Shown here piece by piece: positions 2,788-58,312 of a stretch of DNA of 64,000 bases; positions within the stretch are counted from its first letter, which is position 1; every line of letters begins with the position of its first letter. This stretch comes from Hydrurus foetidus (Eukaryota), in NCBI GenBank assembly GCA_900617105.1, contig UYFQ01000574.1, positions 1 to 64,000 on the forward strand, read 5' to 3'. Under the pieces are notes generated by a model. That model saw only the letters and a program-made list of their open reading frames with translations, was not told the origin of the DNA and searched no databases. The position numbers were made by a program, and so were the translations under genes.

Positions 2788-4939
2788 ACGGCTTGAGGTG
2801 TGCAGCTTGCGGGGCTAGCTAATCACTGAAAATATCTGAGTGATGAGAACAGAGAGTACAGAGTTCATTTTTGAAGGCTTTCATCTCCCTAAAAATGAAT
2901 CTAAGACAAAATCATCCGGCCCATTGGGCGGTACATTTCGGCACGTCTTGTCACGCAAGAAAGGTGCGAAGGTATCAGTGTTGTCATCGTCAATCTCGTC
3001 AACGGAGAGTGCGACACCGCTTGGCCATACGGCTTCCACGTCATAGTCTGATGTAACAGAGTCCCCAGAGGTATGTGTGAGGGTGGGAATCGAGTCACCA
3101 CCTAGGTGCGGGGTATCACCCGTACGTTTTGCGAGTCTAGTCGTGACACTAGCCAGTCGCTCACAACCCACATCACCACATGGACTTTGGGTCGCGACTC
3201 CCTCGGAACCAACCTGGGTAACGCTACACGTGAACGTTGTATGACAACCTGACCTCACGACTTCCTTGGTTAAAGGTGCGTGCAAAATGGCCTTCTTAGG
3301 TTTTGGCTTTGGGCATAAACCGTATGGCTCTCTTTAACGAGCGAGTTCAGTCTGTGTGATACAGTTCAACAAATCATAGGTTGGGGTTATCGACTATAAC
3401 TCAGGTTCCTCGGGTTCGAAACCCTCGGATATCATACGCCTGGTGTATTTGCTCCAATGAAGTGGGTCAAACTTGGCTATCGTTTCCCTTTCTTCAAAAC
3501 TCGCGCCAACGAGTGTCACATTTCCTTTTGTACTCAGCACGGAGCTCGTGAGAGATTCCAAAAGCAAAAAGTGTCAATGACATAAAATCATAATTATTTA
3601 CAGTTATACGACTTAAGAAAAGTTCGATATCCGTGTTCCTAGTAACTCGCAAGGTTAACGGGATAGTATGACATTCACTCTCATAAGAATGAAGTTTGGC
3701 CTTGGCCAAATTTAGGGATATGTTGAAGTCAAAGGCAGGATCGAACGAACGAGAGCCTGATGTATATATATGAACAAATATATGTATGCATATGTATCAT
3801 TTTCTTAGAATATCACATTGGTTTGTTCGAGAGTCGAGACAATCAACGGTGGAAGGCAATAGATATGGCGTACTAGAGCCTATATTTCTTCTTGAATATT
3901 GCATAGCAATTTTCTAGCATGAAGCTGCGTAAGATTCCTAGGATCGAACTTTTTTTTTTTTTAAATTTGTATTTTTGAATCATATAAACAGGATCGAACG
4001 TACGAGAGCCCATGAATTCAATGTATTCCCGCGGAATAATGTTTTGTTTCGCTTCAGCCCTAAGCTTTAAGAAACACTAAAACGAAGGTTGTGAGGCAAA
4101 GCCTTTTCCCCTTTTGAATATTGCCTAGCAATTTGTTCCCAGCAGTATCCTCTGAGAAATATCTTTTCCATTTTTTTTTTTTCATTAAAAAAATGTTTGT
4201 GTGCAATCGTCAACTCTGACGTTGATTTGTTTAAATTACAATCTGAAGAAGAATCTTAAAATCTGCAAAATAACATCTTATTTTGCAAATATACTAAACG
4301 ATGACCCACCCCTATCGGGAGTCGAACCCCGAATATTCTGTGGGTGTAGAATCTGTTAAGATATTATTTTTATTCATCAAGATATCACTAACGCGCGCGA
4401 TTCAAGTGTTCTGAATGGGCGATTCATGTTACCATGACTAGGGTGCATCTAGCGAGAGGTTTTGACCTTATTTAGGTGAAAAACTGATGAAAATCAGTCG
4501 CAAACTATGATGTCGCGCTGAGTCCATAACTCTGCATGATGATATCGCTTTAATCGAGTAATCGTTGCAAACGATTCTCTAGGATATGAGAGACAATTAT
4601 GCAGAGGGGCGATCGTGTCCGCCTCCGAATTCTCTGTGTATCTTCTGTCAAAAGACATGCAGAAATCACCTGCTGACACAATGATATATCTCCTCGGAGA
4701 AATATGATTGTAACTCATCGAAGACAGAAGCCCCTCGTCAAAAAAATTTGCGAGGGCTTCGCCTCGTTGGTTAAAAGGGTCCTTTACGTTAGGAACAACG
4801 AATAAGTTGGTTTCAACCAACTCTTGTTGAGAAAATCTCTTAGGCGTGGAAGCCAAATTTTGAGTGGTGAAAAATTTTGGTGTCCGTAAAGGATGAAGGA
4901 AGTAATTCCCACCGACCAAAAGAAGTCCTTAGACTAATT

Positions 4940-5459
4940 TGGTGTCGCTAGCAATGAATCTAATGTTCAAATTGCAAACCGACGAGTTTGAAAGTGTCGA
5001 GTGGTGAAGGCTTTCGCGAATTCAACCAACTACGAACTTTGGAGACACCAATAATGGGTTCCAAGAGGAAAGAGGCTAAGCCCAACTTTCGCTAACTTAA
5101 ACTAAGTTCTTGGAGCGTAGCTCAGCAAGAATTTCGACTCCGAAGATGTCGTGAGTAATAATACTCAGGTGTTGGAAGTCTTAGCTAAAGTTTGGACAAG
5201 GTAGAGGGGAATTAGGGGCAGCAGAAATTTTCCCGAGGATAATAGATCTATTGTGGTCGGGCAAATGGAGAAAGGGGGCGAGAGGAGGTAGGCTTAGTTA
5301 CAGGGTGTCTAGGCTAGAAGCTAGTTAACTTCTAAGTGGACGCTGTAGATGGCTACGACGATACGACAGCCTAACTGTAGTGTACAGTAGTAGTACCCGG
5401 TAGGATCCGGTAGAGTCGGTACCCGGTAGGATCGGGACCCTGGACCCGGTACTATCACA
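4940..5459 (-). repeat. 5' LTR of Gypsy copy 1 (inner boundary uncertain)
   Basis: The reverse complement of about 5270-5459 aligns with 6659-6848, which follows a PPT. The inner end is placed tentatively at ...GACACCA (4940). Confidence 0.6.
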
Positions 5460-6848
5460 CGGGTACGCCCCATAACCTCACTCTAGCTTACTCCTCTCAA
5501 GAGAATGCGATTGTTGAACGAGTCAATAAAGAGACAAATAGACATCTGAAAGGACTGGTGTTCGATACACCGTCTCTTGTCCATTATGCAAAATGCATTC
5601 CGTTGGTACAACGAATTATAAATAGTTCGGTTAATAAACGTACGGGTGCAAGTCCAGCATCTATCCTATTCGCGGATAAACTTGATTTGAATCGAGGAAT
5701 TTAACACCTCATTTGTTACCGATGGTATCATCATCAAATTCAACATATATTGCTGATTTAATCGAGATACAGGACAAAGTCCTCGATGCAGCAATCGGCT
5801 CACTTCAGAAATGTGATGAAAAACACAAAAAGTCGACATCCGGTTTGACAGTGTTCCCTATAGGGTCGTATGTCTTGGTAAAACAAGAACACCCTCCAAC
5901 TCGATTACACACTAAATGGAAAGGCCCTTTCCGTGTTGTATCCTTTGAAGGATCCGAGTATGTTCTCGCGAACTTAATTACACATAAACACAATAGTGTA
6001 CATGTAACGAATCTTAAAATATTCAATTATGACCCTTCGATGGGCTTACCTGCTGATACAGCACGTCGCGATTACATGGAGTATTTCGTTGAGAAAGTTC
6101 TTAATCACTCGGGTGATACAAAGAAACCGACTACGATGTCGTTCCATGTGAAATGGCTCAACTATGATGACTCACATAATACATGGGAGCCTTGGAAGAA
6201 TCTCCGGCTCTGTGATGCACTCCATGTATACCTGAGGAACAATAACATGTCGCGTTTTGTTCCCAGGAATATTGAGGGATCAACCACCGAGGTTTGAGCT
6301 CAAACGTAATATCTTTTGAAGATTTTTTGGCCTAATTTTTGCCCTCACGAGGGATTTTTATGGTTTTTTAGTCAGTAAAAATCTGACATAATTACGTTTG
6401 ACCCTCGTACAACAGAACGATTCTGTTTTGTACATACTCCCTTATCCTTAACTTTCTCACCATTTCCGAAACCCCTTTGTAATTTCGTTTGTATATAATT
6501 TCGCATTTTTTCTAAAAAATATTGTATATATTTTTTGGTTATCGTTTTCCGTTATCATTTATGTCAAATATTGTTATTTTCAAACATAGAAACGGGGGTT
6601 TCGCCATAGTTTAGTGTAGTTTAGATTTTCTTTGAGAAAGAAGGATAAGTGGGGGTAGTGTGGTAGTTCCGGGTCCAAGGTCCCGATCCTACCGGATAGT
6701 ACTACGGTACACTACCCACCGTACACTACAGTCTGTTGTATCATCGTAGCCACTTACAGCCTCCACGTCGAAGTTCACCCTAGCTTCTAGCCTTTTAGCT
6801 GTAACTAACTACCGCCTCTAGACATCCTCCTCTTCTCTTCCCATCCGA
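5460..6848 (+). mobile_element. Gypsy chromovirus copy 2: 3' part (integrase C-terminus, chromodomain, PPT, truncated 3' LTR)
   Basis: Begins mid-integrase (GTPHNLTLAYSSQENAIVERVNKE). ORF 5713-6297 is nearly identical to 84-530. PPT GAGAAAGAAGGATAAGTGGGGGTAG ends at 6658 and is followed by LTR TGTGGTAG at 6659. Confidence 0.92.
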
Positions 6849-8730
6849 GTCATAGTTGTAGGTTTTGGAAATTTATAAGGAGGAGGTTGGTGGTAGAGAG
6901 GGCAGCGTCAGTTAATGTTGGCCCAGATGTAGAGCATTTGATAATGATATGTGTTAGTGAGCGAAGGGGGTCTGGTTGGTAGGTAGCGCCGCACCGTTGC
7001 ATGTATCCCAAACTGAAAAGATTGGCAGGGATGTTTGCGGAGTAATAGACATGGTTCATGTTGGCGGTGATGGGTAGGTGTTTGAGGAATCCTTCGTGTG
7101 TGATGACACAGTGACCACCAACACCAGACAGTGAGAAGGGCTTCCGAAGAGGTGTGAGATTGTATAAGAGAGTAATGTTGTTGACGGTGTGGAATGAGCA
7201 CGCGTTGTCCCAGTATGATGGTTTATGGGGGTGTGGAGAGGGCACGTGTGTTGGTTGAGTTGACGGCCGTTGTAGTGTGACAGGAGCAAGAAGACCTGTT
7301 GCGTCGGCCATTGCGGTGGGTCAGAGTAGCGTATCCGGGAAATCGGCAGCTGCAATGGCGGCTTCGGCAATGAGCATCATTGCATTGTTGGTGTCGTTGG
7401 GCGATTCAGTTGACTCCAGTTGGCTGAGTAGTGCTCGAAGGTGCGATGTTGTAGAAGGTGCTTTGTTGTTGTTAAGGGATGGAGTGGTGGTGCGATTTGG
7501 ATTTTTGGAACAGTTACTTGCTAGATGACCGAAACGCTGAACTTTATCGGCGGCTAGGCACCAAGAGCAAGGCAGTGGGTGGAGGTGTGGCGTTTTGGGG
7601 GATCCGGATGTTGTCTTTTTGTTTGATTTGTCGGATGTTGGCGTCTGTTTGAGATGTTGTGGTGGTGTGTTTGCTATTAAGGCAGATCCTTGCGTTGATA
7701 TGGCATCGTGAGGGATTGATAGTGCATGAGCTATTTTCCAATTTTGAAGTTCTGTCATTAAGAGACTTGTATTTGGGAATCGTCCTGATGATGTTGCGTG
7801 GAGTAAGTCATCGAGTGGTCGGCGAAAGTGAGTGCTGAGGCCTTGTAGGTATATGGCACTGGTGAATTTGCTAATGGAGACGTAGCCGGGGTGTTCAGCA
7901 AATTTGAAGTCTAGTCGGAATATGTCTGCTTGGTTTGTGATCTGCTCCATGTACGATTCATGCGACATGCTGTCTTGGGTTGCCGTAAGGAATCGTCGAG
8001 TGCGGTGTTTTGTAGAAGCATTGCCCGTGGAATGATTATCTCTAACCATCTTGTAATACTCGAAGCTACGAGCTCCAATTGGTAATAGTTGGTATGCGGC
8101 GAAGTTGGCGTGGGCGCGGATGGATGTATGTGATGCGAGGGATATATGACTGCAGATGTAGTCGAGTAGGGCTGTGTCGAAGTCTGAAAACTTATTGGCT
8201 GCGTCGTGATAAATTTTGAGGTCAGCTCTGAGTTCAGTGCTTCCTCGGTCGCTGAGAGGTAGGGGGGATGGGTTAAAATTTTCGGTGGCGACTTCGGCAG
8301 CTGTGAGTTGCCTTCGAGGATACACGAATTGATTTGGTAGTGGAATGCCGGCTGCGTTCTTTTCCAAGTCGAATTTTGTTTGTGGTAGCGGGAAGGGAGT
8401 GAGAGGGATGATCTTGTCGGTAATGATTTGTTGTCCAGCTGCACCAAATTTGGTAGTGCATTGGAGTTTAAATGCCTGGAGAAAGGCTGTCAAATTGTCC
8501 TGAAGGAGGTCGAGGACAATGGCAGGTAATGCGGTTGCTAACGGAGTGTGGCTATTAAGCATACTTTATAACCAAATGTCGGAATTGGCTGTGAAAGCGA
8601 AGAGCTTAACGGATGAAACAGATTTGGTTATAAGCTTACTGCTTACTGAAGCTAATGATATGTGGATTGTGATCGAGAGACGATGTTGTGGTGTATGTGA
8701 CATGTGCGTATTGGACGACAGTTTAATGAC
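6849..8730 (-). mobile_element. Truncated Ty1/Copia element (copy B), a divergent relative of the 24458-30106 element
   Basis: gag ORF 7321-8562 and protease ORF 6850-7311 (SYWDNACSFH) are homologous to 28561-29800 and the region downstream of it. LTR edge TGTCGG at 8577; outer LTR boundary approximate. Confidence 0.85.
7321..8562 (-). CDS. gag: Copia Gag with zinc knuckle (CSWC...GHLASNC)
   Basis: 413-aa ORF homologous to the gag of copy A. It ends in TGA, followed in frame by the protease. Confidence 0.8.
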   Translation of the reverse strand: MLNSHTPLATALPAIVLDLLQDNLTAFLQAFKLQCTTKFGAAGQQIITDKIIPLTPFPLPQTKFDLEKNAAGIPLPNQFVYPRRQLTAAEVATENFNPSPLPLSDRGSTELRADLKIYHDAANKFSDFDTALLDYICSHISLASHTSIRAHANFAAYQLLPIGARSFEYYKMVRDNHSTGNASTKHRTRRFLTATQDSMSHESYMEQITNQADIFRLDFKFAEHPGYVSISKFTSAIYLQGLSTHFRRPLDDLLHATSSGRFPNTSLLMTELQNWKIAHALSIPHDAISTQGSALIANTPPQHLKQTPTSDKSNKKTTSGSPKTPHLHPLPCSWCLAADKVQRFGHLASNCSKNPNRTTTPSLNNNKAPSTTSHLRALLSQLESTESPNDTNNAMMLIAEAAIAAADFPDTLL

Positions 8731-10310
8731 TTTCAAGGCATGAAAAGTTAGTGTAACGGTGTAGCGTATTAACGGTAGAATATACGAACAGTCTTTGATG
8801 AGGCCATGATTGATAAGTCGCTGAATCTTGCATCATGCTCCAGCTTTTCTTGTAGATGATAAAGCTTTTGATCATAAGTGACGGGCACGCCACTTGCGAC
8901 TTTGAGGACCCTGAAGGCCTCTTCGATGGTTGCCACATTCTCCTGAATGGTTTGTGTGGACTTGAGCTTCAGGGAGTGGAGCTGATCCGTTGCCTTCCTG
9001 ATGTCGCTGTTCTTTGTGCCGTTGATGTGATCGTAGATAGTCTTGAACCATAAGACCGCATCGTTGTCGGCAATTACACGCTTGATCAAATAATCTAAAT
9101 CTTTCCCAGTAACCATGTTGAGAATAACCAATAAGCGATCCAAATCGTATAATCGTTTGTAGATGTCATCAGCTGGGATGACATCATACGATCCCTCTTC
9201 TGCTAATACCAGTGACCTAGGTGAATACCCTCCAGGGTTCCGAGCAGTAATGACTGGTAACTCACGATCTCCTTTGGCTAATGTAAGAAGTTTACATTCA
9301 CCTAGAGCGACCATGAACGTTTCCATGTTGTCGCGGTTGTCCTTCCTAGAGTTGGAAAACTTGGGCATCGAAAAGAAGAATTTCGGTTGCGCAGAGGTGG
9401 TATCCAAATATTCCGAAATGGGCACCGATAGAGTAGAAGATTCCTTGGGCGTTGAAGCACTTGGAATAGAGGCAGATCCAACTTTTGATTTCGGTTGGGA
9501 GACCAACCGTGGAGGCTGTTGGATCTTAGAAGACATAATGTCGATGAGCCTTGCCATATCGGCGAAGGAAAATCTTGTCTCTGCATCCTGAGCCTCCAAA
9601 TTGTCCGAAAATAAAGTTGGCGCTGTGGCTCCGAGATTCCGCGCCCGAGGTGCTAGAGGTGGTGTCGGAACAGCATCCTGATTTTGAAGGGCTAATTCCA
9701 CCTCGTCTAGAAAATCACTATTTGGATTTTCTAAAGGAAGAATTGCTCCTGTCCTAGATCTTGTAACTCGACCAGTGAAGATGGGTTGAGCTGCTTCGAT
9801 CAGAGTTCTGAACGGATGTGTAAGAAGGTCGGCAAGAGCCGGCGGTGAGTCTGTGTTGAACAGCTCGAACTCGTCTTCAGATCCATTATCACTCATGATT
9901 GCAGGGTTCTGAAAGTTGAAGAAGGAAATTCAGAATCCTGGAATCTACGGCAATCGTTTAATCACTATAAACAATCGCTACCATGTAAGACTAAATACAA
10001 GATGTCACCTTCTAGCGTTCGCAGCGAAGGTGGAGAAGCAGCTGCAGGCTACTTTCTCAATTCAGTGAGCTATCGAGTAGACGAAGCTGTGAAGTACAAC
10101 GTATTAAATTCTGATTAGAGTTTACAGATAGCCACGCAAAAGAGCTATCAGAACAATTCATGACAGTGAAACTACCTTGAGACAAAGTTCACAGCGAGAT
10201 GTATTGTTCATAGCATGTGCTTGAGGAACGTTGCATGAATGCTTATAGTAACGAAGTGTTTTGGCGATACTGAATAATCATGAAAAGCGAACGTTCATTT
10301 GCGTGAGGTC
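8731..10310 (-). mobile_element. 5' remnant of a second Copia-like element (LTR, PBS, gag-like ORF 8769-9896)
   Basis: On the minus strand, ...TTACA is followed by TGGTAGCGA (PBS-like, 9975-9983, resembling the iMet-type TGGTAGCG). The 375-aa ORF has a UBN2/gag-like helical C-terminus. Outer LTR edge approximate. Confidence 0.6.
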
Positions 10311-17748: not shown

Positions 17749-19894
17749 ATGGAGGATCTAGGGAATCGATTCAGAGGCAATGGTTTTCAATGGACATTTC
17801 TACGATCCTTCAGCGAAGGTGATCATAGTGGCGATATTGCTTGTCGCTTTTCGTGGAACTAAACTATCGCATTTTTTACTCTAGAGCCTGAAGTAGCAGC
17901 TTTACTCCTTGAATTGGGAGTCAAAGTTGGTAGAGTCAACTACAACGCAACTTGCACGACCTCTTACTATATCTGTAATACGGGAGGTTGCAGGAAGCAA
18001 TACAGAGTCGTCAAATTATTAGATGACACTGACGACGACGACGTTGACAATCTATTCATTGAGGAAATCGCAAATGAAGTTCATGATCATACTGCGGCAG
18101 ATGTTATTCTCAGGGGATTGTCACCGCGGCAAAAGGAAATCGTCCTTCAATGCTTAATGAGGAAGCAAGGCATGCCCAAACGTGTCATCGACGAGTTTGT
18201 TCGTCAGGCCGCAATTCAACTGGCAGCAAACTTACCAGTTGTTCCAACTCCAACGACGGACATGATATCAAGCTTCACATCTCATTATCGTAAACGTGAG
18301 AGGGGTGGGATCGCTGTTGGCAAGACATCTCTTCAGGACTTGGAAACTTTTGCACGAGAGAACAGAATAGGTAAGCAGATTTACTCAATAAACAAAAGAA
18401 GCTTAACGAGCTAATACAGCGTAATCTGATATCAGTTTTAGATCAAGGTCTCGATGTAGCTGCAGTATTGGACTACGAGCACGATGACCAAGTTAGGGAT
18501 CCCTACTTCTCTATATTATTTTCTACTCCCCGCTTGATCGATGGCACGCATCTGACCCGTCCAATTGAAATGGACGATACCTACAAGCTTATTCATGAAG
18601 GATTCACAGTAACTGTGTTAGGTCAGACAGATGCGGATCGCGTATTTCACACGAGAGCAATTGGAATCTCGTCAAATAGTACAGAGAGGGTTGGTGCATT
18701 TTACCTCCGTGCCTGGAGAGACAGAGTTCCACTATTCACCCCTCGTGCATACTTGGGAGATGCAGCAGAAGCCTACGCCAACGCTGCACGGCAGACATTT
18801 CCGTCCATTGCTGTCCGATTGATGTGCTTCGCGCACGTGTACAAAGTAAGTCTGGCAAGTAAAGTGAAGTAAATAGTTGAATTCAATCTAAGAAATTTTC
18901 TTTATCTAATACAACTCCAACTTCGCAGAATGTGGAGAAGCAGACGAAAAGGATCCACGATCAGGCCGTCAGAGCAATGTTTCTCCAAGACATTAATGCG
19001 TTATCTCTGTCGTTCACCGCAGAGCAAGCCCTACAGGCGGTTGCATTATTTCTCGTCAAATGGGAGGCCAGTGAAAACGCAGTAGTGCTGAATGTCACCT
19101 CCCATTTCAGGACTCAGTGGACAAACAATCTTGTAAGTAACTGGACAAGAGGGCACTGTCCTAATTGCGTCATCAATAATAACGGACTCGAGGCAACCAA
19201 TGGAGTTATAAAGAACGAGGTAACCCAGAGAAGGCTGTTGCCTGTACTGAATTTCTTCGTAGAAATATCGAGGTGGCTTGGTGCCCAGTCTATAAGGAGG
19301 GATCCAGCAAATCCTAATCCAATCCCATTTACCAGCGTCCATACGATCATGACAAGCGACTGGACTGAGGCTTACAGATGGTCTAGAGACACTGCCCGAC
19401 AAGTTCGTATCACGAATGATGGGAGCTACGTAGCCGTCAATAGCGATGTAAGGGGTGATTTGACAGATGATAAAGCAGCCAATTTCGTGGCGAAGTTCAC
19501 AAATTTTTCGTTCGAATCCTTTGATGATTTCACAACGACATCAAATAACGTATGTGTTATCAGACCCGATCTTACTAGGCAAGAAGGGTACAATTGTACT
19601 TGTGCAGTGAATGCAAAGAAGCACAGCTGCAGTCACTCCCTCGGTGTCGCTATCATCCGAGGCACTCTTGTTCCTCCCAGAGATGCTATGGTCACCCTCC
19701 TCGGACGTAAGAGAAAAAGAGGAAGAAAGCCACAAGCTGCACCTGCCTGGGAGCACCAACCCTTCGATATTGTTTCTCCTCAGCACCATCCCCAGCAAAA
19801 TCCTGCTATCCTTGCGGGTGTAGTTGCGCCTCCGAATCCTCAACATGCTATATTAGAAGAGCACATTGAACAACCTGATGCCATTGAACAGTAA
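17749..19894 (+). CDS. MULE transposase with SWIM zinc finger, 4 exons (17749-17818, 17885-18370, 18442-18845, 18929-19894), about 641 aa
   Basis: GT-AG introns give one open frame. Motifs MDDTYK, LGDAAEAY, MCFAHV, NNGLEATN and SWIM CTC...CSH. Confidence 0.9.
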
Positions 19895-24155: not shown

Positions 24156-24457
24156 GATTATGAATGACACTACCCACTATAGTGATGGTCGATTATAATG
24201 ATGGTCGTATATAATTAGCGATGTGTAGGCTCGCGTTAAAAGGCTCGTGTTAATAAACGTCTCGAGCGCTGAATCTTTGCAATCAGTAAATTATTTTGTT
24301 GCCGATAGCCGATCAAAAGAGCTGCTTCAGTTTTGAGCTCCGATTACCAACAATTGTTTCAGACCTGATCAAAATTTGGCGGTGTCATCAATCCCCAATA
24401 TGGATTGCAAAGGAGACCAAAGTCCATGTCTGTTTCCGATTTTGAAACAGCCAACAG

Positions 24458-24721
24458 TGTCAGGAATCGGGACCAAAACCGGAAAGGAATCGGTAGAAAC
24501 AGAATTGCTTAAAGGTTTACTGGTTAAAAGATTGTGTGAGATGTGAATGAATGAACGATTGTAATTATGTGAATTGTGAATCATGCGATGTCGAATGCTA
24601 TGCACTTCAATGTTGAAATGTTAGAACTTCAATGTTGAAATGTTGGGACTTCAATGTCGAGATGGTGGAACTTCAACGTGTTGGATGGTTGTACAGTGTA
24701 TGTGTATACAAAACAATGACA
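24458..24721 (-). repeat. 3' LTR of Copia A
   Basis: Identical to 29843-30106; contains internal ACTTCAATGT repeats. Confidence 0.95.
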
Positions 24722-24807
24722 TGCGCCGGTAAGCTATATGCTAAAGAGTGTGTAGCTTAAATGAAAATAGGAATACAGGTAAGGATTAGGTGGAAGAGTT
24801 AGTGGTA

Positions 24808-27800
24808 CTATGTTTTACGAGTTGACGGAATATTTAACAGTTGGCTCCGAAACCATAGGAATTTAGAAGGGGATAGAGTTTTAGTGAGCCCATCCGCTAT
24901 CATATCATGAGTGCTTATGTGGCGGGGTGCAATTTGGTTTGTTTTAAATAGCCAGCGGACGTAATGTGATTTAAGGGCTATGTGGCGCGATTTGCGTGTA
25001 ATTTGGTTGGCTGTGGTCAGGTTAATGGCGGGTTGATTGTCTTCAAGTATGGTAGTGGGTTGGTGTTGTGGGAATCCTATGTCAGCAGCGAACTGTCGAA
25101 AGAAAACGACATCTTTGGCGCAGCGACCGAGTGCAAGGTATTCTGCTTCACAGGGGCTGAGGGCGATACCTGATGTTTCCGCTGAGGAGTGGACAACGAA
25201 GGGTGCATTAACTGTGCCTATTTGGATGGTGTAAGCAGAGTGGGAGTGACCATCTGGATGGCATGCGTGTGAGGAGTCTGCAGCCGCGAAGATGGTGACG
25301 CCGGATGTGAAAGCAAGTGGGTCGGTGGAGTAGGTTGGGCCGAGGTTAGGGCAGCCTTTTAGGTAGCGAAGGAGATGGATTTGTTTGGAGAGGTCTGATT
25401 GAGTTGGTGCAGAGTTGCGGGTACAAAGATGGACGACTTCTTTGCGGATATCGTGGCGAATAGGAAGAAGGAATACGAGGGTTCCATTGATTCGTAGAAA
25501 GCGTGTGCGGTCAACGGGGGTTAGGTCAGTTGGAGCATCGAAAAAATTGGAGGTGGAGGGAGTGAGAGCGGGTGGGACAAGGTCCATTCCTGATTGGTGG
25601 AGGAACTTGATTATGTGTGCGCCTTGATCTAGAGTGCAGGAGTGGTCAGAATGTCGGGTAAGGCGGACACCACAGACGCCTGTGGAGGCATCGTTGAATG
25701 CAATTGTGCCGTAGCGAGTCTGTAGGATGTGTTTTAGTTCATTTTGTAGAGTAGTGGATGTTGTTACATACCAGCCGTCGTCAACGTGCATATTAAGAGT
25801 GAGTGAGTCGTCAGTATTGACGGGACATCGCTTGTGAAAACTATGGTGATCTGATGCAGTGGGGATGAATCCAGCTTCTGTGAGGGTATGTATTAGATCT
25901 TTATCGTATTCGTGGTTAGCTTGCTTTATGCCGTAGCAGCAGCCAGTTATCTCTGCAAGCTTGCCTGCAAGGGGGCTTGGAAGGTCTGGTGGAAGGATGG
26001 CAATGAGTTGATGCCCGTTGGTCATATCACGTGTAAGCTTGTTGTGGAGAAAGGCTCCAGGGAAGTCGAAGTCGCCTAGGAGGAGGCGGTCAAGACAACT
26101 GCGATGGGAGGCATCTGCTAAGTAGGCACTTAGTATGAAAGCACGGTTGGTGGTGTCGGAAGTGCCTGCGTAGGTGTTGTTGTAGGATTCTGGCGGCTGG
26201 CGACTGCCGTCGATGGCTAGGCGGGCGGTAACAAGGCCGTTGGACTTTTTCTTAATGAGCATTTGGCTGCGAAGAAAGATTGCCTTTGTTTCGACACTCG
26301 ACTGAGGAATGAGAGTTAGGGACTGGTATGTGTCGAAATGTTTTCCTAGTTCTTTTGAAATTCCTGTGGCAACATCGGCCGTGGGAAGGAGTAATGAGGC
26401 TTTGCGAATGGACATTTCTGCACGTGAGCTGGGTAGGGGTTGCGGTTGGAAGTCAGTATGCCTATTGTTCAGGGGAGTGTTGGAGGGGTTGTTGAGTCTG
26501 TGTTGCTTGTTTCTAGCCGCTGCCAGTTTAGCATTATCAAGCTTGCGTTGAATTGCATTGATGTAGGCAGAGATAGATGGGTTCGACTTTATCAAAGGAG
26601 TGCTAAAGCAGCCCTTCCAAAAGTTAGTTGGGTGTGAGGCCCTAGGTGACCTACGTAGTGCGGCTGGTGTCTCGGGTGGTAGGTTGGGTAGTAGTGTCCC
26701 GAGAGGTATTGGTGTTGGTGTTGGTGTTGGTGTTGGTGTTGGTGTTGGTGTTGGTGTTGGTGTTGGTGTTGGTGTTGGTGTTGGTGTTGGTGTTGGTGTT
26801 GGTGTTGGTGTTGGTAGTGCAAAAGTTGGAGCTGAAGCACGGGGTATGTAGTCTTGGTGTAGTTGAGGTTGGGGCATCAAGAGGGAGGAGTGGAGGTCAG
26901 CGGGTAGCGGAGATGGAATGTAACCGGTGACTGTAGCTATGGCTTCAGTGTGAGCGATGCCTGGTAGTTGGATGACCTCATTTGGAGTGCTAGCAACTGG
27001 TGGGAGTTCGTAGTCTGGAATTGTTGATTGGATAACGTATGGCTTGGAGGTCCAATCGAAAGGTACAAAGTGTTGTGGGAAAGGGGTGGTAGGTCTTCTG
27101 GGAACAATGGAGCCGTTAGCAAGGAGGAAAAGCGTACGGCCTGTGAGGGTATCTGGGCCCATGCAAACTCCAAGTTCAGCTTTGGGTTCGGCATTGGCTG
27201 CGGTGTGGTTGTTGCGAGCAAGGGCATGGCGTTTGTCGGGATGTTGAGTTACCATGCAACAGCGGCCGAAAGGAAAGGGGCGTCGGGTGGGTTTATAGCC
27301 TCGGAGGAGCTCATCTGGAGTTGATGGGGCGCTGCGGGTGTTCATTAGAGTATTGCGGACAGCAGCGATGGCTTTGTGTAGGTGAAGGGTGTACTTTAGT
27401 GGGAGGTGGTACGGTAGTGCTGATAGTGTGGCAGTGGTGATTTGCCGGATGGTAAGAATTGAGCGTTCAACACGGGCAGCGTGCTCACCAGGAGGTGATG
27501 TCTGAAGTGTTATCCCTAGCGAACCGAGTGGGCTTGCGAGTGATGTATTCACTTTCTCGCAGTCGCCGTGTAGTGTTTGGACTCGGTGGCGATTTGAGTT
27601 GTATGTGACGGATATGATGTGCTGTAGGGCTTTGAACATGGCGGGAGTTGATTTCGAGGAGGAGCCAATCACGGAAATATGTCCTGTGAATTCGTCGACT
27701 AGTATGATCTCGTGTGTATGCATGCCCGGGGATGGTTCGGGGAGTAGCTGTGGATCAAAGCTGATAACAGCACCGACGGAGGTTGCGGGAGCGCTTGTTG

Positions 27801-28560
27801 AAGGAGGATGAGAGGGGTTGCGGTGTTTACCCGCTGTACAATGGGGGCAGGGGCCTCGAAGTTGGCGGTTGAGGGTGACATCGGTGCATGTGAGGGTACT
27901 GAAGGGGAGCTTGCCCGTGGAGAGGTTGGCGCAGAGGCTGCGGTCAGATGGGTGGCAGAGATCATTGTGGAGTTCTTCTGCTGCATCAGCGCGTGCCCTT
28001 TGTTCGGCGTTAGCATGAAGGGTGGGGAAGGTGGTGGACATAGCGAGGGGTTGGTAGTATGCTGCGGGAGACAACGTAGAGGCGTGGTGGAGTGCGGCGA
28101 AGTCGACTGGTAGTAGGTTGTGTGCGGTTAGAGTTGCATGCGCTAGGAGGGGACCGGATGGTGAAGAGAGGATGGAAATGTGAGTGTGGGGACGGAGAGG
28201 ATCAGGGCTGTATGAGGCTCCACATCTTTGAAGTTGGCCGAGACTGAGGAGATTGACGGGTATGGTGGGGGAGAAGTATGCTGAGTTCATGGACTTTGTA
28301 GTGGGGAGGCAGAGGAGACGGCCGCTATGTGTGACTGGACATGATCCACCTACTACTCCGATGGAGAAGGGCGTGGCGAGTGGGATCATATTGTAGAGGA
28401 GCGAGGCGTCGTTGACTGTATGAAAAGAGCATGCGTTGTCCCAATACGAGGCGTTGGGTGTTGAAGGGATTGCTGTAGGGGAGGCGAGAGCGAGAGGACT
28501 GGAGAACAGGGCGGAGGGATTTGATGCGTGACAGAGGTTGATGGCAGGGTTGGATCCTAG
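24808..28560 (-). CDS. pol: Copia Pol (protease, integrase, RT, RNase H), in frame after the gag TGA
   Basis: SYWDNACSFH; LHNDLCH..CPHC; D,D,E; DFPGAFLH; YGIKQA; HVDD; ADSSHA; EAEY; EDNQ; ADGLTK. Open from 28560 to 24808. Confidence 0.93.
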   Translation of the reverse strand, partial: LGSNPAINLCHASNPSALFSSPLALASPTAIPSTPNASYWDNACSFHTVNDASLLYNMIPLATPFSIGVVGGSCPVTHSGRLLCLPTTKSMNSAYFSPTIPVNLLSLGQLQRCGASYSPDPLRPHTHISILSSPSGPLLAHATLTAHNLLPVDFAALHHASTLSPAAYYQPLAMSTTFPTLHANAEQRARADAAEELHNDLCHPSDRSLCANLSTGKLPFSTLTCTDVTLNRQLRGPCPHCTAGKHRNPSHPPSTSAPATSVGAVISFDPQLLPEPSPGMHTHEIILVDEFTGHISVIGSSSKSTPAMFKALQHIISVTYNSNRHRVQTLHGDCEKVNTSLASPLGSLGITLQTSPPGEHAARVERSILTIRQITTATLSALPYHLPLKYTLHLHKAIAAVRNTLMNTRSAPSTPDELLRGYKPTRRPFPFGRCCMVTQHPDKRHALARNNHTAANAEPKAELGVCMGPDTLTGRTLFLLANGSIVPRRPTTPFPQHFVPFDWTSKPYVIQSTIPDYELPPVASTPNEVIQLPGIAHTEAIATVTGYIPSPLPADLHSSLLMPQPQLHQDYIPRASAPTFALPTPTPTPTPTPTPTPTPTPTPTPTPTPTPTPTPTPIPLGTLLPNLPPETPAALRRSPRASHPTNFWKGCFSTPLIKSNPSISAYINAIQRKLDNAKLAAARNKQHRLNNPSNTPLNNRHTDFQPQPLPSSRAEMSIRKASLLLPTADVATGISKELGKHFDTYQSLTLIPQSSVETKAIFLRSQMLIKKKSNGLVTARLAIDGSRQPPESYNNTYAGTSDTTNRAFILSAYLADASHRSCLDRLLLGDFDFPGAFLHNKLTRDMTNGHQLIAILPPDLPSPLAGKLAEITGCCYGIKQANHEYDKDLIHTLTEAGFIPTASDHHSFHKRCPVNTDDSLTLNMHVDDGWYVTTSTTLQNELKHILQTRYGTIAFNDASTGVCGVRLTRHSDHSCTLDQGAHIIKFLHQSGMDLVPPALTPSTSNFFDAPTDLTPVDRTRFLRINGTLVFLLPIRHDIRKEVVHLCTRNSAPTQSDLSKQIHLLRYLKGCPNLGPTYSTDPLAFTSGVTIFAAADSSHACHPDGHSHSAYTIQIGTVNAPFVVHSSAETSGIALSPCEAEYLALGRCAKDVVFFRQFAADIGFPQHQPTTILEDNQPAINLTTANQITRKSRHIALKSHYVRWLFKTNQIAPRHISTHDMIADGLTKTLSPSKFLWFRSQLLNIPSTRKT
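26711..26815. repeat. (GGTGTT)n hexamer encoding a (PT)n linker between integrase and RT
   Basis: About 17 perfect units, in frame within pol. Confidence 0.95.
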
Positions 28561-29800
28561 TCAGGCGGTGTCTACGTATTCTGAAGCCTCGATGGCGGCC
28601 TCGGCGATGAGGAGCATGGCCGCGTTGGATGCATCTGGGGTGGCTGCGAGATCAAGTTGGGTAAGGAGTGCTCGAAGACGCTGCGATGTGCTGGAGGGGT
28701 AGTGGGACGATGGTTGCGGAGGAGAGGTTGAGTTTGGGTTTGGTACGCGGTTGGGGTTCTTAGAGCAATGTGCGGAGAGGTGACCGAAGCGTTGGATCTT
28801 ATCTTTAGCTAGACACCAGGTGCATGGAGTTGGGTGAAGATGGGGCTTAGGGGCGTTGGGGATGTTGCCTGCAGTCTTGGCAGCTGGAGATTTGGTGCGA
28901 GTGGTGATGGGTTGGGACGCAAGAAGGGCAGAGCCTTGAGTGGACACGTCGTCGCGGGTGAAGGAGAGTGAGTTGGCGATTTTCCAGGCCTGGAGTTGTG
29001 ACATTAGGGCTGTAGGATCAGGAAAGCGGCCAGTTGGGTGGTTGTGGAGGAGTTCATCTAGTGCGCGGCGGAACTCAGTACGGTTGAGGCCAGCGAGATA
29101 TAGGAAGCTGGTGAGCTCTGGGATGGATACAAAGCCAGGATGGACGGTGGATTCGAAATCCAATTTGAATGTCTCTGTCATTGAGTTGACAAGGTCGATG
29201 TAGGCTTCGTGGGGTAGGTCAGATTGTGTAATGTTCATGTAGTTGCGTGTGCGATGAAGCTTGGTTGCTGCGTTGCCGATGGAGTGGATGCCCCGGATCA
29301 TGACGTAAAAGGCGTAGCTGCGCGCTCCGATTGCCAGCAGTTGGTATGCAGGGTAATTAGCATGTGTTTTGATGGCGATGTGGGAGGCAAGAGATATGTG
29401 TCTGTAGAGATGATCGAGGCAATCGGTGTCTTGGTCTGAAAAGCGCCGTTGGGCATCATTGAAGATCTTCTTGTCGTCGCGGTAGTTGGTGTTGCCTTGG
29501 GTGCTGAGTTGGAGGTGGAGTGCGTTGCCGGCTGGTTCGCCTTCGGGTGGAGTGCGGCGTTGGTAAATGTATTCTCCTGGGATTGGTGTGCCAGCAGGAT
29601 CGAGGTCGAGATCGTTCATGGTTGGTTCGTTTGCGAATGGATGTAGAGGGATGAGTCGTGATCGGTGAGGAAATTTGGTTGCCTGCGACGCCAAATTTGG
29701 TGAAGCATAATAGTTTCAGAGACTGGTTCCATGTGGACCAGTTGTCTTGATGGAGGTCGAGAAGTGGCGCTGGTGCCAATGAGGTTGCCTTGGATAGCAT
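28561..29800 (-). CDS. gag: Copia Gag with a frameshift near 29655-29670
   Basis: The N-terminus (ORF 29456-29800) and the body (ORF 28561-29694) each align to the single gag ORF 7321-8562. Zinc knuckle CTWC...GHLSAHC. Confidence 0.8.
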
Positions 29801-29842
29801 ATTGCTGCAGAGGATCGGATGATGCTTTGAACCTTAAGCAAT

Positions 29843-30106
29843 TGTCAGGAATCGGGACCAAAACCGGAAAGGAATCGGTAGAAACAGAATTGCTTAAAGG
29901 TTTACTGGTTAAAAGATTGTGTGAGATGTGAATGAATGAACGATTGTAATTATGTGAATTGTGAATCATGCGATGTCGAATGCTATGCACTTCAATGTTG
30001 AAATGTTAGAACTTCAATGTTGAAATGTTGGGACTTCAATGTCGAGATGGTGGAACTTCAACGTGTTGGATGGTTGTACAGTGTATGTGTATACAAAACA
30101 ATGACA
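29843..30106 (-). repeat. 5' LTR of Copia A
   Basis: Identical to 24458-24721. Confidence 0.95.
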
Positions 30107-31342
30107 AACAGCCAACTCCAACACTCGAACTCAACTCAACTGAAATTTTGAATTTTGAGTCTGTGAAAATGTGAAATTATTTTCACCAATCTGTCATGAT
30201 ATCCGTAAGATACGGAACAATTTACAGTTTACAGTCAGTTTAACCTCATCAGTCTTTTTTAATTTTGTTGTCACGACTGTTGATGGATTTAGGGTTCATA
30301 CCGAAATGCTTTCACAGAAATTCGTAACCTGAGAAGTCTTCAATTTTGACACAGACCGTCCCCTGGATCCTTTAGTACTGCTGCTCTACCGGATATCATG
30401 GAACAAATTGGCTTACTCCTCGGCTTCTAGGGATGTCCAAACAAACCATTATCAGTACCGCAGAAATGGATAGTACGAAATGTCTACTGATAAGTAAAAG
30501 CATTGCACGTACTTGATCACAATGGATAGTTAAAATTGCAGAACGAAAAATAAGAATCGCTTGTTCAGTACATTATTCATTATTCGCTTACAGAATCTGC
30601 GTAATTTACACAACCCAGAGAGTTTCTAGGTAGAGACAATCAATGAAAGCACAGCATATCATGAGAGATATTCAATTTGATGGCTGCTCAGTATCAAGGA
30701 GGAAAGGGAATGAACAGCTCGGATGCCTTGTGTTTCATGCTATATTCTAGCGGTGTTGTGGCAGCGGACTCGGATAATACTATAATACTATATCATCAGT
30801 TGAAGATGAAAACGGAATCAAGATTAAAATGTCTCCATAAATCGCTAATTATCAAGATATCTTGAATTTAGAATCTGAAAATTTCGCCGCATTTGATGAA
30901 AGAAAGGAGGATAGTGACAAATGATGAGCCTGTGTCGGTGTCTCTGATAAAAACAGATTAATAGCGCATTTAACAACGAATTGAAACTTGTCCGCGAAAT
31001 AGCACCGGTTACTCTCTTTGCCCCTATTACCACCCTTGCAGATTTGACCCAGAAACTGCAGTTCGATGGCATGACTTACTCAGAAAATGCGTAGACTGGA
31101 GAGAGCAGCGGTGCATACTTGACACGCAACTCTACGGTGCGAAGAGAATGATCTCGTGATAAGCTAACAACGAGCAATTCAAACACCCAACTCTACTTGA
31201 TACCCTACCTACCCACCTACCTACCTGCATACAGCAGATTAAAACAGTTCAAGGCACACGTTACAGTCTTCCGTGACCTGGCCGGCAGAGACAGTTAGTT
31301 CTCTACCATCGATCGAGACCTCAAAACGAAGAATCTGTAAAA

Positions 31343-47387: not shown

Positions 47388-49410
47388 ATGACCTTTGGAA
47401 TATTACAACAACCAAGCGTCTCCTTTCTCATAAGTTCCGCACGCTGCTCAGTGCAGAACACACAACAGTAGAGGGAATAACTCTGATCCTACAATCTCCG
47501 TACATCAATTAGTAGGGTCATGAGTCGCTTCAAAGGTTACATGTAAGAGTATAAATAGCTTTTGGGGAGAGACTTAACTGATCAATTAATGGAGGAATTT
47601 ATTTGTCAAACTCTATCTTTCTTTTTTCTGTCGACCGTACTTGCACCACAACATTCAGTATGTAGTGTCGTGTGAATCTACATTCTCATCGAATATGAAG
47701 TGGCAGTAACTACAGACAAGGCGCGTCGCGGCTAGTGCCACCACTCGAATGAGTCACTGTTACTTCTTCGGCAATATTCGGCAATAAATTCATAGGCAAG
47801 ACCACCACTTTCTGCAATGCCGAACACCCAAAGGAATTCATAACATGGGCTCGCAACGGCTCTTCGGACATTTTGCGAAGGCAACATCGTGGTGTTTACT
47901 GAAGAACAACGCATATTTCTGAAGAACATCAACAAACAGACGAAAAAGGGACTTTGAAACGCGATAATGAAACTGCAGACTCAGAAAAATTATTATCGTG
48001 TAGTGCGCTCACGCGATGTTGGTCAATCATACTGTGTAGGTGCCAAAGCGAAAAAAATGACTCAAACTAGTCCAGAGTGTTTCGAACCATTGCTTTAAAG
48101 AGTGCTGTTCCATATAAAGGAGACGCTTTCATTCATGACAGCTGTACATAATGAGGTTGTGAACATTTCTTGCCCCGAACTGTAGCATCACCGCTGATAA
48201 TTCTCGCACTGAGCTTGCATAAGATTATACAGCTGTCATCTCCGCATGTAGAATATATCAATGGATTAAAAAATATAATTCAAGTCAATTATAGTACTGC
48301 GGGAGAAATAACATTTCCTCAATTGAGTTATGCTTCTTTGTTACACTGTGTGTAGCTTGTAAATGGTTCGAAAATACTAAACCTTGCATCCGAGACCTTG
48401 AGATACTGTTGTATTATCGGAAACAATTGTATAACAATTGAGCCTCTGAAAGAAACCTGCCTGTCTACTGTGAAAGAATCCCTCCCACCTTAGGGCAGTA
48501 TTGATCAAAGGAAAAAATCTTAAAACGTTTTACGACATCGAGAAGATGATGATTCGCCAGCCAGTGCCCCGTGAATCAAGCCCATTATTGTGACCCAACT
48601 ATTTCTTTCATGCGTTTTCTTATAATATCAAAAGGTATCGGAACGGTATGAAGATTCCGTGTTCGGTTCTGGTTCGAGCTACCCGGAGATACGGGCTGGT
48701 GACGTCAAGAAACGTGAAATACGGTTTTGGAAAAAAACATCTTAAAAACCCCGTTTTTTGGAAAAAAAACATCTTAAAAATTGAAATCCTCGATTTGGGC
48801 ACTCAAACAATCGAATGGAAGCACTGGGCAAGCATCACATCTGTTTGCTCGATCCCAACACGATGGCTGTGCCTCTGACGAATCTGAATTTATGACATGA
48901 ATCAGTATGATGTGATCTAAAGTGTGACCTCGATGCTTTTTTGAGTTCCGTACTTCCGCAAATTTTATTGCGATGACAAGATATCCGCCAAATTTTAGTT
49001 GACCAAAAAAATTTGAAAAAACGAAAAACGAAAAAAGCATCGAGATAGTGGTGTGTGGATTTTCATTTCGGTTCTTTTGAGCCATCAGTTACAAAAAATG
49101 ATTCAGTGGCTGAATTGGGAAACGAAAATATATACTTTTGCCCGGTACAGGCGTCATCAGCCTGTAACACACACGTACTTAGCGGTTGGACCCTGGATCA
49201 GAAATTCTCCTACGTGGTGAGAAAATCATACCCTCGTACACAATATCAATATTTCGTGCGATGTGTATGAATATGAAGAATTTTAATATGTTCAACTCTT
49301 CAACTCTGCAACTCTGCAACTCTGCAACTCTTCAACGCACTTTAGTTTCACCTCTGGTTCGACAGCTACGACGTTTACCATTCGTTGTCAACACAACAAA
49401 AGAGAAGAAC

Positions 49411-49898: not shown

Positions 49899-50238
49899 AC
49901 GAATTTTAGGAGACATTAAAATTTACGTCGTCACACTTTTGGATTTCCGGAACTCTCGTACTTCAGCAACCGCACGCCGCTCAGTGCAGAACACACAACA
50001 GTAGAGGGAATAACTCTGATCCTACAATCTCCGTACATCAATTAGTAGGGTCATGAGTCGCTTCAAAGGTTACATGTAAGAGTATAAATAGCTTTTGGGG
50101 AGAGACTTAACTGATCAATTAATGGAGGAATTTATTTGTCAAACTCTATCTTTCTTTTTTCTGTCCGCCGTACTTGCACCACAACATTCACCATGTGGTG
50201 TCACCACAACATTCACCATGTGGTGTCACCACAACATT

Positions 50239-55592: not shown

Positions 55593-56404
55593 TACTATAT
55601 CGGAGCTACAATGAATAAATATTACCGGGACAGAATAAAATGTCCAGTAGATATGAACGAATCCGAGGTGGAAATGGTGATTTCAACAGCGCTCAAACCT
55701 GTTTTCCTTCTCTGTTTTGGACATTTTATTCTGTCCTGGTAATATACTGTAACTTTTCGGATTGGAATGTATTGACTTTTTCCGTCAACATGAGCAGACA
55801 GCAGACCGTGCTGATAAATCGTTGTACACGCAGTAGTGCCGTATGTTAGCAGTGACGACTGTGCGATAAAGGAGCATAAAGTGCTTGCGACATTGATTTA
55901 TTGACGTCACTGGAAACGTGGCATTGATTCCAGCTGCTGATACCATGGATTGAATTGGTTAGGACCCACTAGATCTTTTTTCAGTAAATAAATCCCACCT
56001 TACAACTTTCGGCACCCAACTCTCACCTTCCAACTCAACTCACTTTACAACTTTCACCTTACAACTCAACTCACCTTACAACTTTCACCTTACAACTCTA
56101 CTCACCTTACAACTCCCACCTTACAACTCTCACCTTACAACCCTCACCTCACGACTTATTCACCTTGCAACTCCGACTCATAGGTGGCGGAAATTTAAAA
56201 AAAGTTTATCGAAGTGTATTTTTTAATCTCAGTATAATATCTGTTATTTCTTTACTTTCGCTTTTTCAATTTTTTCTAGTGAACAGCCAATTATTCTCCG
56301 AGGCATTCAATCGAAAGGCACTTTACGATTTTCTTTAGATAAAGTGGGCCTTGATCATGAGCGACAAACTTTCTGAAGCCAACCGCACCAAAATGCAAAA
56401 TCTT

Positions 56405-56480
56405 CGCGTCCTTGGAAAAATCGAACCCTCGGTCCTGATGGTGTGAGCCCCACGCCGTACCACTTAGCTACACAGAAACC
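56405..56480 (-). other. tRNA-like (Val-CAC-like) degenerate sequence with A and B boxes
   Basis: Minus strand GGTTTCTGTGTAGCTAAGTGGTA..CTCACAC..GAGGGTTCGATT. Stems pair poorly, so probably not a functional tRNA. Confidence 0.45.
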
Positions 56481-56690
56481 GCGTACACAACGGCAAAAAT
56501 ACACAAACAAATAGTACGTTCATACTTAGGCTTATCGTCACCTCGGGTCAACACTTCACAGAACACTGTTAGATTCATCTTTTTGACGTTATGAAAATTG
56601 AAATGCAAAAATCTAAAAGGTTATAATTGATATTATGTCATCTCTATTCCTGATAGAAAATCTCGTCAACTTGCTAAATTTCTTTGTACG

Positions 56691-58312
56691 ATGCTTCATT
56701 TTAGCAGGAAGTCCGCGAAAGGAAATAATCTGTTGCAGATGAACAACAAGTTATTTTCTAAAACCAAATTTGCTCATGATGTTAATGGAGAAATAACAAA
56801 ATGCTATTGGGTTTGCGTAAACATTCGCAAAGGCTGTAAGGCGAAGGTTCATTATGAGGTGGACCTTGATGTAGCGGGTCCAGGTTACGATGGAATGACA
56901 GATGGAATCATCAACGTCGTAGCGACTGATCATGACGATGAGTATTGCGTTACAGATGAGATGGACATTGCCGTTAGAAATGCAAGGAACAATGTGCTTA
57001 GAGAATCAACCTCTGGTAAGTTCAATACCGTATTTCACTATAAAAAAGTTGTTTTTCTGATTTGTATCATTTTCAGGTGTGGACCTATACGTTGCATATG
57101 CAAATGTAATGAATCCTATTCAGCTGGATAATCCAGTAGCTGCAGGACAGATGTTTACTGCGGACAGTCTGCATAGCGCCTATAGTCGACGAAGGCTCTC
57201 TGTCTTACCAAGATTACCTATTGGCTACAACGACGTTATTATACCAGAAGAATACAGAAGAGCTGAGAATGGGCATCAATTTCTACTTTTCCAAGATTCC
57301 TTTCCAAATATTCCTGGCGGACCTCTCGAGAACCATATTCTATGTTTTGGTACAAGGAAATTCTTAAAGAAAATGTGCAATGCAACAGTAGTTCACATGG
57401 AGGGGACTTTTCAAGTTTGTCCAGCACCTTATCAGCAACTTTTTACCATTTGCTCATTTCATCACGATGACAACAGATTGCTTCCGAGAATGTATTGCTT
57501 ACTAAGCGGAAAATCTCATATCGTTTACGAAAGGTTCTTCCAACTCGTCATCGAGAAAGCCGCTCATTGAAACTACGATATCAACTGGCAGAAGTCGATG
57601 AACATTCCATTTTTGCCGCTTTGACAGTGAAGTTTCCAGATGTTGATAAAAAGGGATGTCACATTCATTATTGTCAAGCGCTATTCAGGAGAATTCAGCG
57701 CAATATGAAAGTAAGTTTCAAATTTATAGTGTTCCTTCCTTTACCTGAGATTTGATTTTTTTCAATTATCATGATCATTAGGTAGCATACGATCGGGAAG
57801 AGACTGGTCTAAGAGTGGTGATGAGAAAAAAATTTGCATTAGCGTTTCTCCGACACGAAAAAACTCCCACACAGATCGCTGATCTTCGCCAAGTTCTCAA
57901 CATTCTCACCAACGATCTAATGGCATTAGTCGGAGACGACATTAGTGCTGCTCATGTAAATGACTTCCTTCAGTACTTCAACCATACTTGGATGGGGCGT
58001 TTACGGTCTTGGAACGTCTATGGATTGAACAAGAACAGAACAAACAATCACATGGAAGGTTGGCATTCTCATCTCATCCAAATGATTAACAGCAATCCTA
58101 ACCTCTGGAAGTTCATCACAAAAATCAAATCAGAGCAGACTGCCAAAGAACTGGAGCAAAATCAGATGAATAACGAGGCAATCATTGTCCCACTCACACA
58201 CAAACTGAAGGAAAAAGAACGAAGGCTAGCAAGAAGCAAACAACGGTATAACAATAATGAGTTAACCCCACTCGAGTATGTTTCAACGATTTCTAATCTT
58301 ATGCATTACTAA
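56691..58312 (+). pseudogene. FLYWCH-MULE transposase, disrupted
   Basis: YWVC..CKAKV; HMEGTF (usually DGTF); GCHIHYCQA; RTNNHMEGWH. Stop and deletion at about 57570-57600. Confidence 0.85.

Follow-up and report, generated by a model that had tools for sequence, protein, structure and literature searches.

A Copia Clade in Which an Eight-Nucleotide LTR Segment Covaries with the Primer Binding Site: Probable Self-Priming of Reverse Transcription

Two LTR retrotransposons of the window (the whole stretch of 64,000 nucleotides analyzed here), designated elements A and B, belong to a divergent clade of Copia elements in which the 8 nt at the position of the primer binding site (PBS) are the reverse complement of a segment inside the element's own LTR (hereafter, the arm). 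The geometry of the arm and the PBS, its conservation and the compensatory changes in it are established by the comparison of 16 elements. Judging by the sequences, we consider it likely that the elements of this clade start reverse transcription from the 5' end of their own RNA in a Tf1-like manner; self-priming is the best reading of the data because the covariation is strong and a primer formed by the 3' end of a tRNA is excluded in 15 of the 16 elements.

Elements A and B

Element A (24458-30106, minus strand) is a complete LTR retrotransposon. Its 5' LTR (29843..30106, minus, 264 nt) has the TG..CA ends of Ty1/Copia elements and is 100% identical to the 3' LTR (24458..24721, minus), which holds a copy of the arm at 24504-24511; as in Ty1/Copia, the element is flanked by a TSD, here of 5 bp (24453-24457 and 30107-30111). 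Since the LTRs are identical, end in TG..CA and are bordered by the TSD, the LTR edge (29843) is known without any use of the arm/PBS repeat. The gag gene (28561..29800, minus) ends in an in-frame TGA (28561-28563) and, in the window copy, contains a frame change near 29660-29715, which was not seen in short-read contigs from three runs and is therefore either specific to this copy or an assembly error. The very divergent pol (24808..28560, minus; 1250 aa) has the domain order PR-IN-RT-RH, which is that of Ty1/Copia, with motifs at positions 40 (PR), 269-365 (IN), 832-925 (RT), and 1094-1222 (RH) of the protein. Its domain matches, to Pol_BBD and RVT_2 (E=2e-4), were both under the curated cut-off; the acidic motifs of IN, RT, and RNase H are present and invariant across an alignment of 38 sequences. 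A PDB search returned a low-complexity repeat as the sole match, and a Pro-Thr hexamer repeat was noted between the integrase and the RT (26705-26818). The depth of family A in the short-read contigs is about 7x that of its flank, which, depth being no copy number, suggests that several copies of the family exist.

Element B is represented by its 5' part only (LTR, gag, and protease); a chromovirus LTR interrupts it at about 6852. Its 5' LTR occupies 8577..8720 (minus), with the 3' edge (8577) defined by the terminal motif and the 5' edge uncertain (8720 or 8702); the window contains no 3' LTR of this element, and the edge was set by the motif and by alignment to relatives. The gag and protease region (6853..8562, minus) includes an in-frame TGA at 7321-7323 and is truncated at about 6852. 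The preliminary description of this DNA had treated A and B as copies within a single family, which is not the case: their Gag proteins are 49% and their proteases 59% identical, and their LTRs give no blastn match. Given this low protein identity and the lack of LTR similarity, A and B are two families of one clade. Directly upstream of the LTR of element B and ending near it, there is an ORF of 386 aa without a Pfam match (8769-9929, minus); this ORF is perhaps the gag of a different element that B inserted into. On the other side lies a pair of Gypsy elements with chromodomains (84-5459, minus, and 5459-6852, plus; about 86% alike), apparently nested within each other and in element B; the first of them has, after the putative end of its 5' LTR (about 5252, a provisional edge), a 10-nt self-palindrome and no tRNA site.

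Elsewhere in the window, a MULE-like element with terminal inverted repeats of about 470 nt (99% alike) and an ORF with a FLYWCH domain lies at 55945-59137, and a second MULE fragment at 18375-18872. Two direct repeats of 233 nt, 97% alike and 2.5 kb apart (47437-47669 and 49970-50202), are each located about 650 nt downstream of an 8-nt tandem array.

Relatives of Elements A and B

About 84 of the 120 homologues listed form a close set in which none has an informative name, and no named member of the clade occurred among the homologues found by our sequence searches. In the FastTree phylogeny of RT-RH (137 rows), 101 sequences, including A, make up one branch with support of 100, apart from other Copia proteins; row P0083, initially grouped with the clade, was placed outside this branch. 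In total, 266 clusters (50% identity) match at E<=1e-30. Samples containing element A are mostly freshwater and sediment ones. As to the thioredoxin encoded in the window, its best named relatives are brown-algal (E about 1e-31). Together, these two observations make an ochrophyte host likely, perhaps a chrysophyte.

Twenty metagenome loci were collected, 15 of which contain the junction of the 5' LTR with the PBS. After removal of L011 as a duplicate of L010, 14 loci together with A and B gave the set of 16 elements, for most of which the identity to A or between subclades is 37-50%; the loci left out have the 3' LTR only (L004, L008, and L019), no LTR (L006), or a deleted junction (L020). 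The LTR ends of the loci were placed by terminal motifs. For L010 and L012 there were several candidate ends, and a previous scan for repeats guided the choice; the LTR has collapsed in eight contigs, which are circular assemblies. The protein search of a viral collection revealed no loci of the clade. Three contigs of the clade were found in prokaryotic genomes (L021, L022, and L023), lying, although the clade is eukaryotic, within two bacterial metagenome-assembled genomes, most likely as a result of mis-binning; L023 has a PBS typical of the clade, and its contig begins downstream of the arm.

Pairing of the LTR Arm with the PBS

In element A, the 8-nt PBS (29835..29842, minus) lies immediately 3' of the terminal CA of the LTR and pairs with the 8-nt arm (29889..29896, minus), the predicted self-primer; outside this core, 29888 pairs with the terminal A of the LTR, and 29897 takes part in a ninth pair. 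In element B, the PBS (8569..8576, minus; pairing reaches 8566) is matched by the arm at 8623..8630 (minus; pairing spans 8622-8633). The reverse complementarity of the PBS-position sequence to an LTR segment was already noticed in the preliminary description, and all four strings were found in place in A and B. Both of the duplexes quoted there count the terminal A of the LTR, which leaves 9 paired nt for the PBS proper in A and 11 in B; nor is a pairing of 10-12 bp the conserved unit, the core being 8 bp across the 16 elements. The arm does start 45 nt from the LTR edge in A and B, whereas in relatives this distance varies from 18 to 46 nt. Likewise, GAAACAGA stands beside the arm in both elements, overlapping it by one base, but does not extend to the whole lineage, a similar motif being present in L016 and L008 only. 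Since the distance in relatives is 18-46 nt, the 45-nt spacing and GAAACAGA are to be regarded as traits of these two elements rather than of the clade.

When the final 120 nt of the LTR were dinucleotide-shuffled 2000 times, a pairing run of at least 8 appeared in about 0.15% of the shuffles for A and 0.6% for B. Among 43 contigs of family A from four runs, 11 of the 12 indel rows listed fall in the spacer, and no difference is listed in the arm (29888-29897), with the reservation that mapping favors conserved parts; one low-depth contig has a changed PBS and stops before the arm. Loose contig ends at 29897 were considered to mark the arm as a limit of homology, and this was rejected, as most of these contigs continue homologous after a one-base insertion; an end unlike the window occurs in one run only. 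A register that has a 2-nt bulge and pairs the end of the LTR, seen in A and B, was also discarded, for it fails across the relatives.

Covariation across the Clade

In 15 of the 16 elements the arm and the 8 nt 3' of the terminal CA of the same LTR are exact reverse complements, the exception being L014 (a frameshifted sister of L018), where the first pair is G-U and the shuffle p is 0.93; for the others, p ranges from 0.0015 to 0.016. The PBS adjoins the CA in all 16. Eight distinct 8-mers are involved, and no arm matches the PBS of an element with a different one (0/204 cross pairs). The core comprises 127 Watson-Crick pairs and one G-U of 128 (pair +1, 15 Watson-Crick and one G-U; pairs +2 to +8, Watson-Crick in 16/16), and the limit of pairing is sharp: pair +9 is Watson-Crick in five elements, G-U in three, and absent in eight, so that a PBS run of at least 10 occurs in 2/16. 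On the other side of the core, the terminal A of the LTR is paired in all elements except L017.

At least 13 substitutions in the PBS can be placed on the RT-RH tree, at six of the eight positions (1, 3, 4, 5, 7, and 8); this count was made on 16 rows, with L011 included and B left out. The covariation score is 0.402, compared with 0.151 +/- 0.026 in shuffled data (0/500 shuffles reach 0.402), and slid controls do not exceed 0.083; the score was obtained on a MAFFT alignment in which L007 is out of register, and the shuffle ignores relatedness. The covariation over relatives, proposed earlier as a check of the pairing, is thus strongly confirmed, with 15 of 16 elements perfect and compensatory changes at 6/8 pairs. 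The geometry of Tf1-type self-priming, i.e., a PBS that is located at the LTR, is complementary to the element's own LTR and covaries with it, is present in the clade.

Could the arms be mere chance matches in AT-rich sequence? They are, indeed, short and AT-rich, and in L009 and in L010 two overlapping matches are seen. Such an origin is nevertheless scarcely credible in view of the low shuffle p in 15/16 elements, the compensatory changes, the controls taken further downstream (0/832 8-mers match) and the viral collection, where none of 62 pattern matches, all lacking Pol similarity, has the geometry. In L009:131-143 and L010:2282-2294 the two overlapping copies of the arm lie five bases apart, and two registers would be possible there.

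Absence of a tRNA Site and Folding of the Leader

A PBS for a whole tRNA must start with TGG. The same start serves as a criterion in the accessible part of the survey of plant Copia elements (PMC6317226). Within 5 nt of the LTR edge, TGG occurs in one element of 16, namely B, where it occupies PBS positions +3..+5. The statement that no recognizable tRNA PBS is present therefore holds, as far as the 3' end of a tRNA is concerned, for 15 of the 16 elements, with B as the reservation. As to half-tRNAs, the pattern test revealed no fit to an anticodon loop in 11/16 elements, and the other five fit without an intact stem. By these tests, which concern sequence patterns only, the whole- or half-tRNA PBS of Ty1/Copia was not found in the 16 elements; no tRNA genes were found in the 64-kb window.

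The arm/PBS core is weak (-4.2 to -6.7 kcal/mol), the z-scores of whole-leader folding lie between -0.1 and -2.0, and the arm/PBS helix is missing from the minimum-energy fold in two of eight leaders (B and L017). The duplexes flanking the core in the three-duplex "pretzel" of Tf1 have no counterpart distinguishable from shuffles by a crude duplex test in the 16 elements (mean z -0.17 and +0.18).

These data bear on the possibility that the arm and the PBS form a regulatory or structural hairpin, comparable to the U5-PBS pairings of retroviruses, the primer itself being a fragment of a host tRNA or some other small RNA. Half-tRNA priming is well known among Copia lineages, and the TGG of B and the five loose anticodon-loop fits could be taken as its traces. 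We find this improbable, however: eight different PBS sequences call for many primers, not one of these sequences has TGG at the edge, and the half-tRNA fits all lack an intact stem. Besides, a hairpin kept for its stability should be stable and tolerate G-U pairs, whereas the observed one is weak and, in its core, almost strictly Watson-Crick.

Predicted Start of the RNA

The arm is located near the 3' end of the LTR, behind a conserved AT-rich upstream motif, where a start site would be expected. Just 5' of the arm, conservation is seen at individual bases (A at -7 in 13/14, C at -4 in 12/14). A single contig from one presumed-RNA run spans the 3' LTR and its flank and carries no information on the start. 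The first base of the predicted RNA is U in 14/16 elements. RNA polymerase II rarely initiates with U and would be better served by a purine located a few bases upstream, which speaks for a start further upstream and an internal arm, the longer primer pairing only by its last 8 nt or being trimmed by RNase H on both sides. The conserved motif just 5' of the arm, moreover, loosely resembles the one preceding the plus-strand primer site, and an A|U junction forms the predicted 3' end of either primer in most cases. Still, an internal arm seems rather unlikely to us. A longer primer, once copied, should pair past +8, in conflict with the state of pair +9 described above. Searches against Rfam gave no matches in A and 12 loci, and hence no ribozyme was found, nor any other Rfam family able to define an end.

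The upstream motif could alternatively be a polyadenylation signal, the arm being followed by U/GU-rich sequence; the 3' end of the RNA, i.e., the copy of the arm in the 3' LTR, would then prime at the PBS. We regard such 3'-end self-priming as very unlikely, since a poly(A) tail would block it, the arm of A has no AA end, and a long primer attached at the 3' end offers no cause for the sharp 8-nt limit of the pairing.

Polypurine Tract and the gag/pol Stop Codon

The preliminary description was silent on the polypurine tract, which proved to be absent before the 3' LTR in 15/15 elements, the longest purine run being 2-3 nt in the last 20 nt. This place is taken by a motif in fixed register, with T at -11 in 15/15 and T at -10 and G at -3 in 14/15; L023, inspected by eye, has the same motif and the same lack of a polypurine tract. 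In element A, the boundary of the plus-strand primer position is certain, and 24722..24735 (minus) displays the fixed-register motif of the lineage and no polypurine tract. A purine tract of the ordinary kind (6634-6658) is present in a chromovirus of the window. The lack of a polypurine tract is possibly as unusual as the PBS.

One in-frame stop codon separates gag and pol in each of the 16 elements compared in this respect (A, B, and 14 loci, L023 among them), as TGA in 15 and as TAG in L023. In element A, the TGA at the end of gag is followed by CTAG, and this context favors readthrough, according to the accessible text of bioRxiv 10.1101/2022.12.06.519325. In many relatives, a G-rich run occurs about 6-10 nt past the stop, and it is a possible readthrough signal.

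Proposed Mechanism

Self-priming from the 5' end, which we favor, could proceed as follows. Transcription would begin at the arm or within 1-2 bases of it, and the 5' end of the RNA would fold back onto the PBS over a loop of 18-46 nt. The preliminary description had fixed R-U5 at 55-60 nt, and the clade-wide prediction replaces this value with 26-54 nt. The element's RNase H, which retains its acidic residues, would cleave after base 8, usually at A|U, and RT would extend the primer from the terminal CA. Plus-strand strong-stop synthesis would then write the primer into the next PBS, and this copying would explain both the strict Watson-Crick pairing and the sharp 8-nt end. The plus strand may be primed by a non-purine RNA of 9-11 nt cut at the fixed-register motif, and Pol is presumably produced through readthrough of the stop codon.

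A broader proposal, which we hold as possible rather than probable, is that the clade has swapped both canonical primers, for an 8-nt self-primer, shorter than any whose description we found and lacking a pretzel, and for a non-purine, sequence-defined plus-strand RNA, with a divergent RNase H releasing both by cutting at A|U. If this is true, self-priming would have originated independently in Copia, and an LTR element would exist that has no polypurine tract. The clade offers clean comparative evidence, consisting of eight primer sequences that are strictly compensated and a pairing that breaks off sharply at 8 nt, together with a precise prediction of the start site. Should the prediction be true, tRNA independence would have arisen more than once in Copia, 8 nt would suffice for a primer, and the purine tract would be dispensable for the plus strand. 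Annotation tools that require a tRNA PBS, a polypurine tract or self-pairing of at least 10 bp would overlook such elements.

Comparison with Known Systems

In the literature search, which covered few subscription papers, neither this clade nor a self-primer of 8 nt nor a Copia element lacking a polypurine tract was found described; in the accessible text of the paper on diatom CoDi elements (PMC2806351), no discussion of priming was found. Hairpin priming is treated as a mere hypothesis for ancestors and chromoviruses in the accessible part of PMC3601003.

In the sources accessible to us, self-priming has been demonstrated experimentally in Gypsy only, the Copia cases being predictions. Among these is the plant Copia lineage TAR (which includes Houba and Osr-1), for which self-priming was predicted in 89% of 203 elements, as reported in the accessible part of PMC6317226, where Houba and Osr-1 are mentioned as earlier proposals. 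The claim of a self-priming Copia lineage is partly supported, by the covariation in 16 elements and the exclusion of a tRNA 3' end in 15/16; its novelty was overstated in view of the TAR precedent. TAR resembles our clade in being Copia, lacking a tRNA PBS, having a PBS complementary to its own 5' LTR and producing a 5-bp TSD. It differs, by the same accessible text, in mostly having a single ORF (79%), in contrast to the in-frame stop in 16/16 elements of the clade, and in being called at complementarity of at least 10 bp, which 14 of the 16 elements would miss. In a tree that contains no TAR sequence, the clade branches apart from two named plant Copia proteins without lineage assignment (24-27% identity); it departs from the description of TAR and is probably not a member of it. 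The fungal Copia elements GalEa likewise lack a tRNA PBS and possess a Conserved Hairpin Site, whose partner, according to the accessible part of PMC5445492, which reports no partner found in the LTR, lies downstream; in our clade the partner of the PBS is within the LTR.

The experimentally studied self-primers are Tf1/Tf2 of Schizosaccharomyces pombe and other members of Tf1/sushi, which belong to Ty3/Gypsy, i.e., to another superfamily than the clade. Element A has neither the Gypsy domain order, its own being PR-IN-RT-RH, nor a chromodomain match. In Tf1, the RNA's initial 11 bases pair with the PBS, and RNase H cleaves between bases 11 and 12 (PMC7175516, accessible text); the three-duplex structure is required (bioRxiv 10.1101/2022.12.06.519325, accessible text). 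The start site and cleavage of the clade are predictions. According to the accessible part of the same preprint, gag and pol of the Tf1 relatives Tosmo1-3, Tcry1, and Tj1 are also separated by an in-frame TGA, and TCTT is conserved just before their polypurine tract; the clade is similar to Tf1/sushi in its in-frame gag/pol stop and in CTT located 10-12 nt before the 3' LTR. It differs from Tf1 in that its duplex is 8 nt instead of 11 nt and is accompanied neither by a detected pretzel nor by a polypurine tract. What is distinctive in the clade is the shorter duplex, the absence of a detectable pretzel and of a polypurine tract, and the in-frame stop between gag and pol; in its priming, as read here, it is a clade that operates like Tf1 yet lies outside Tf1/sushi.
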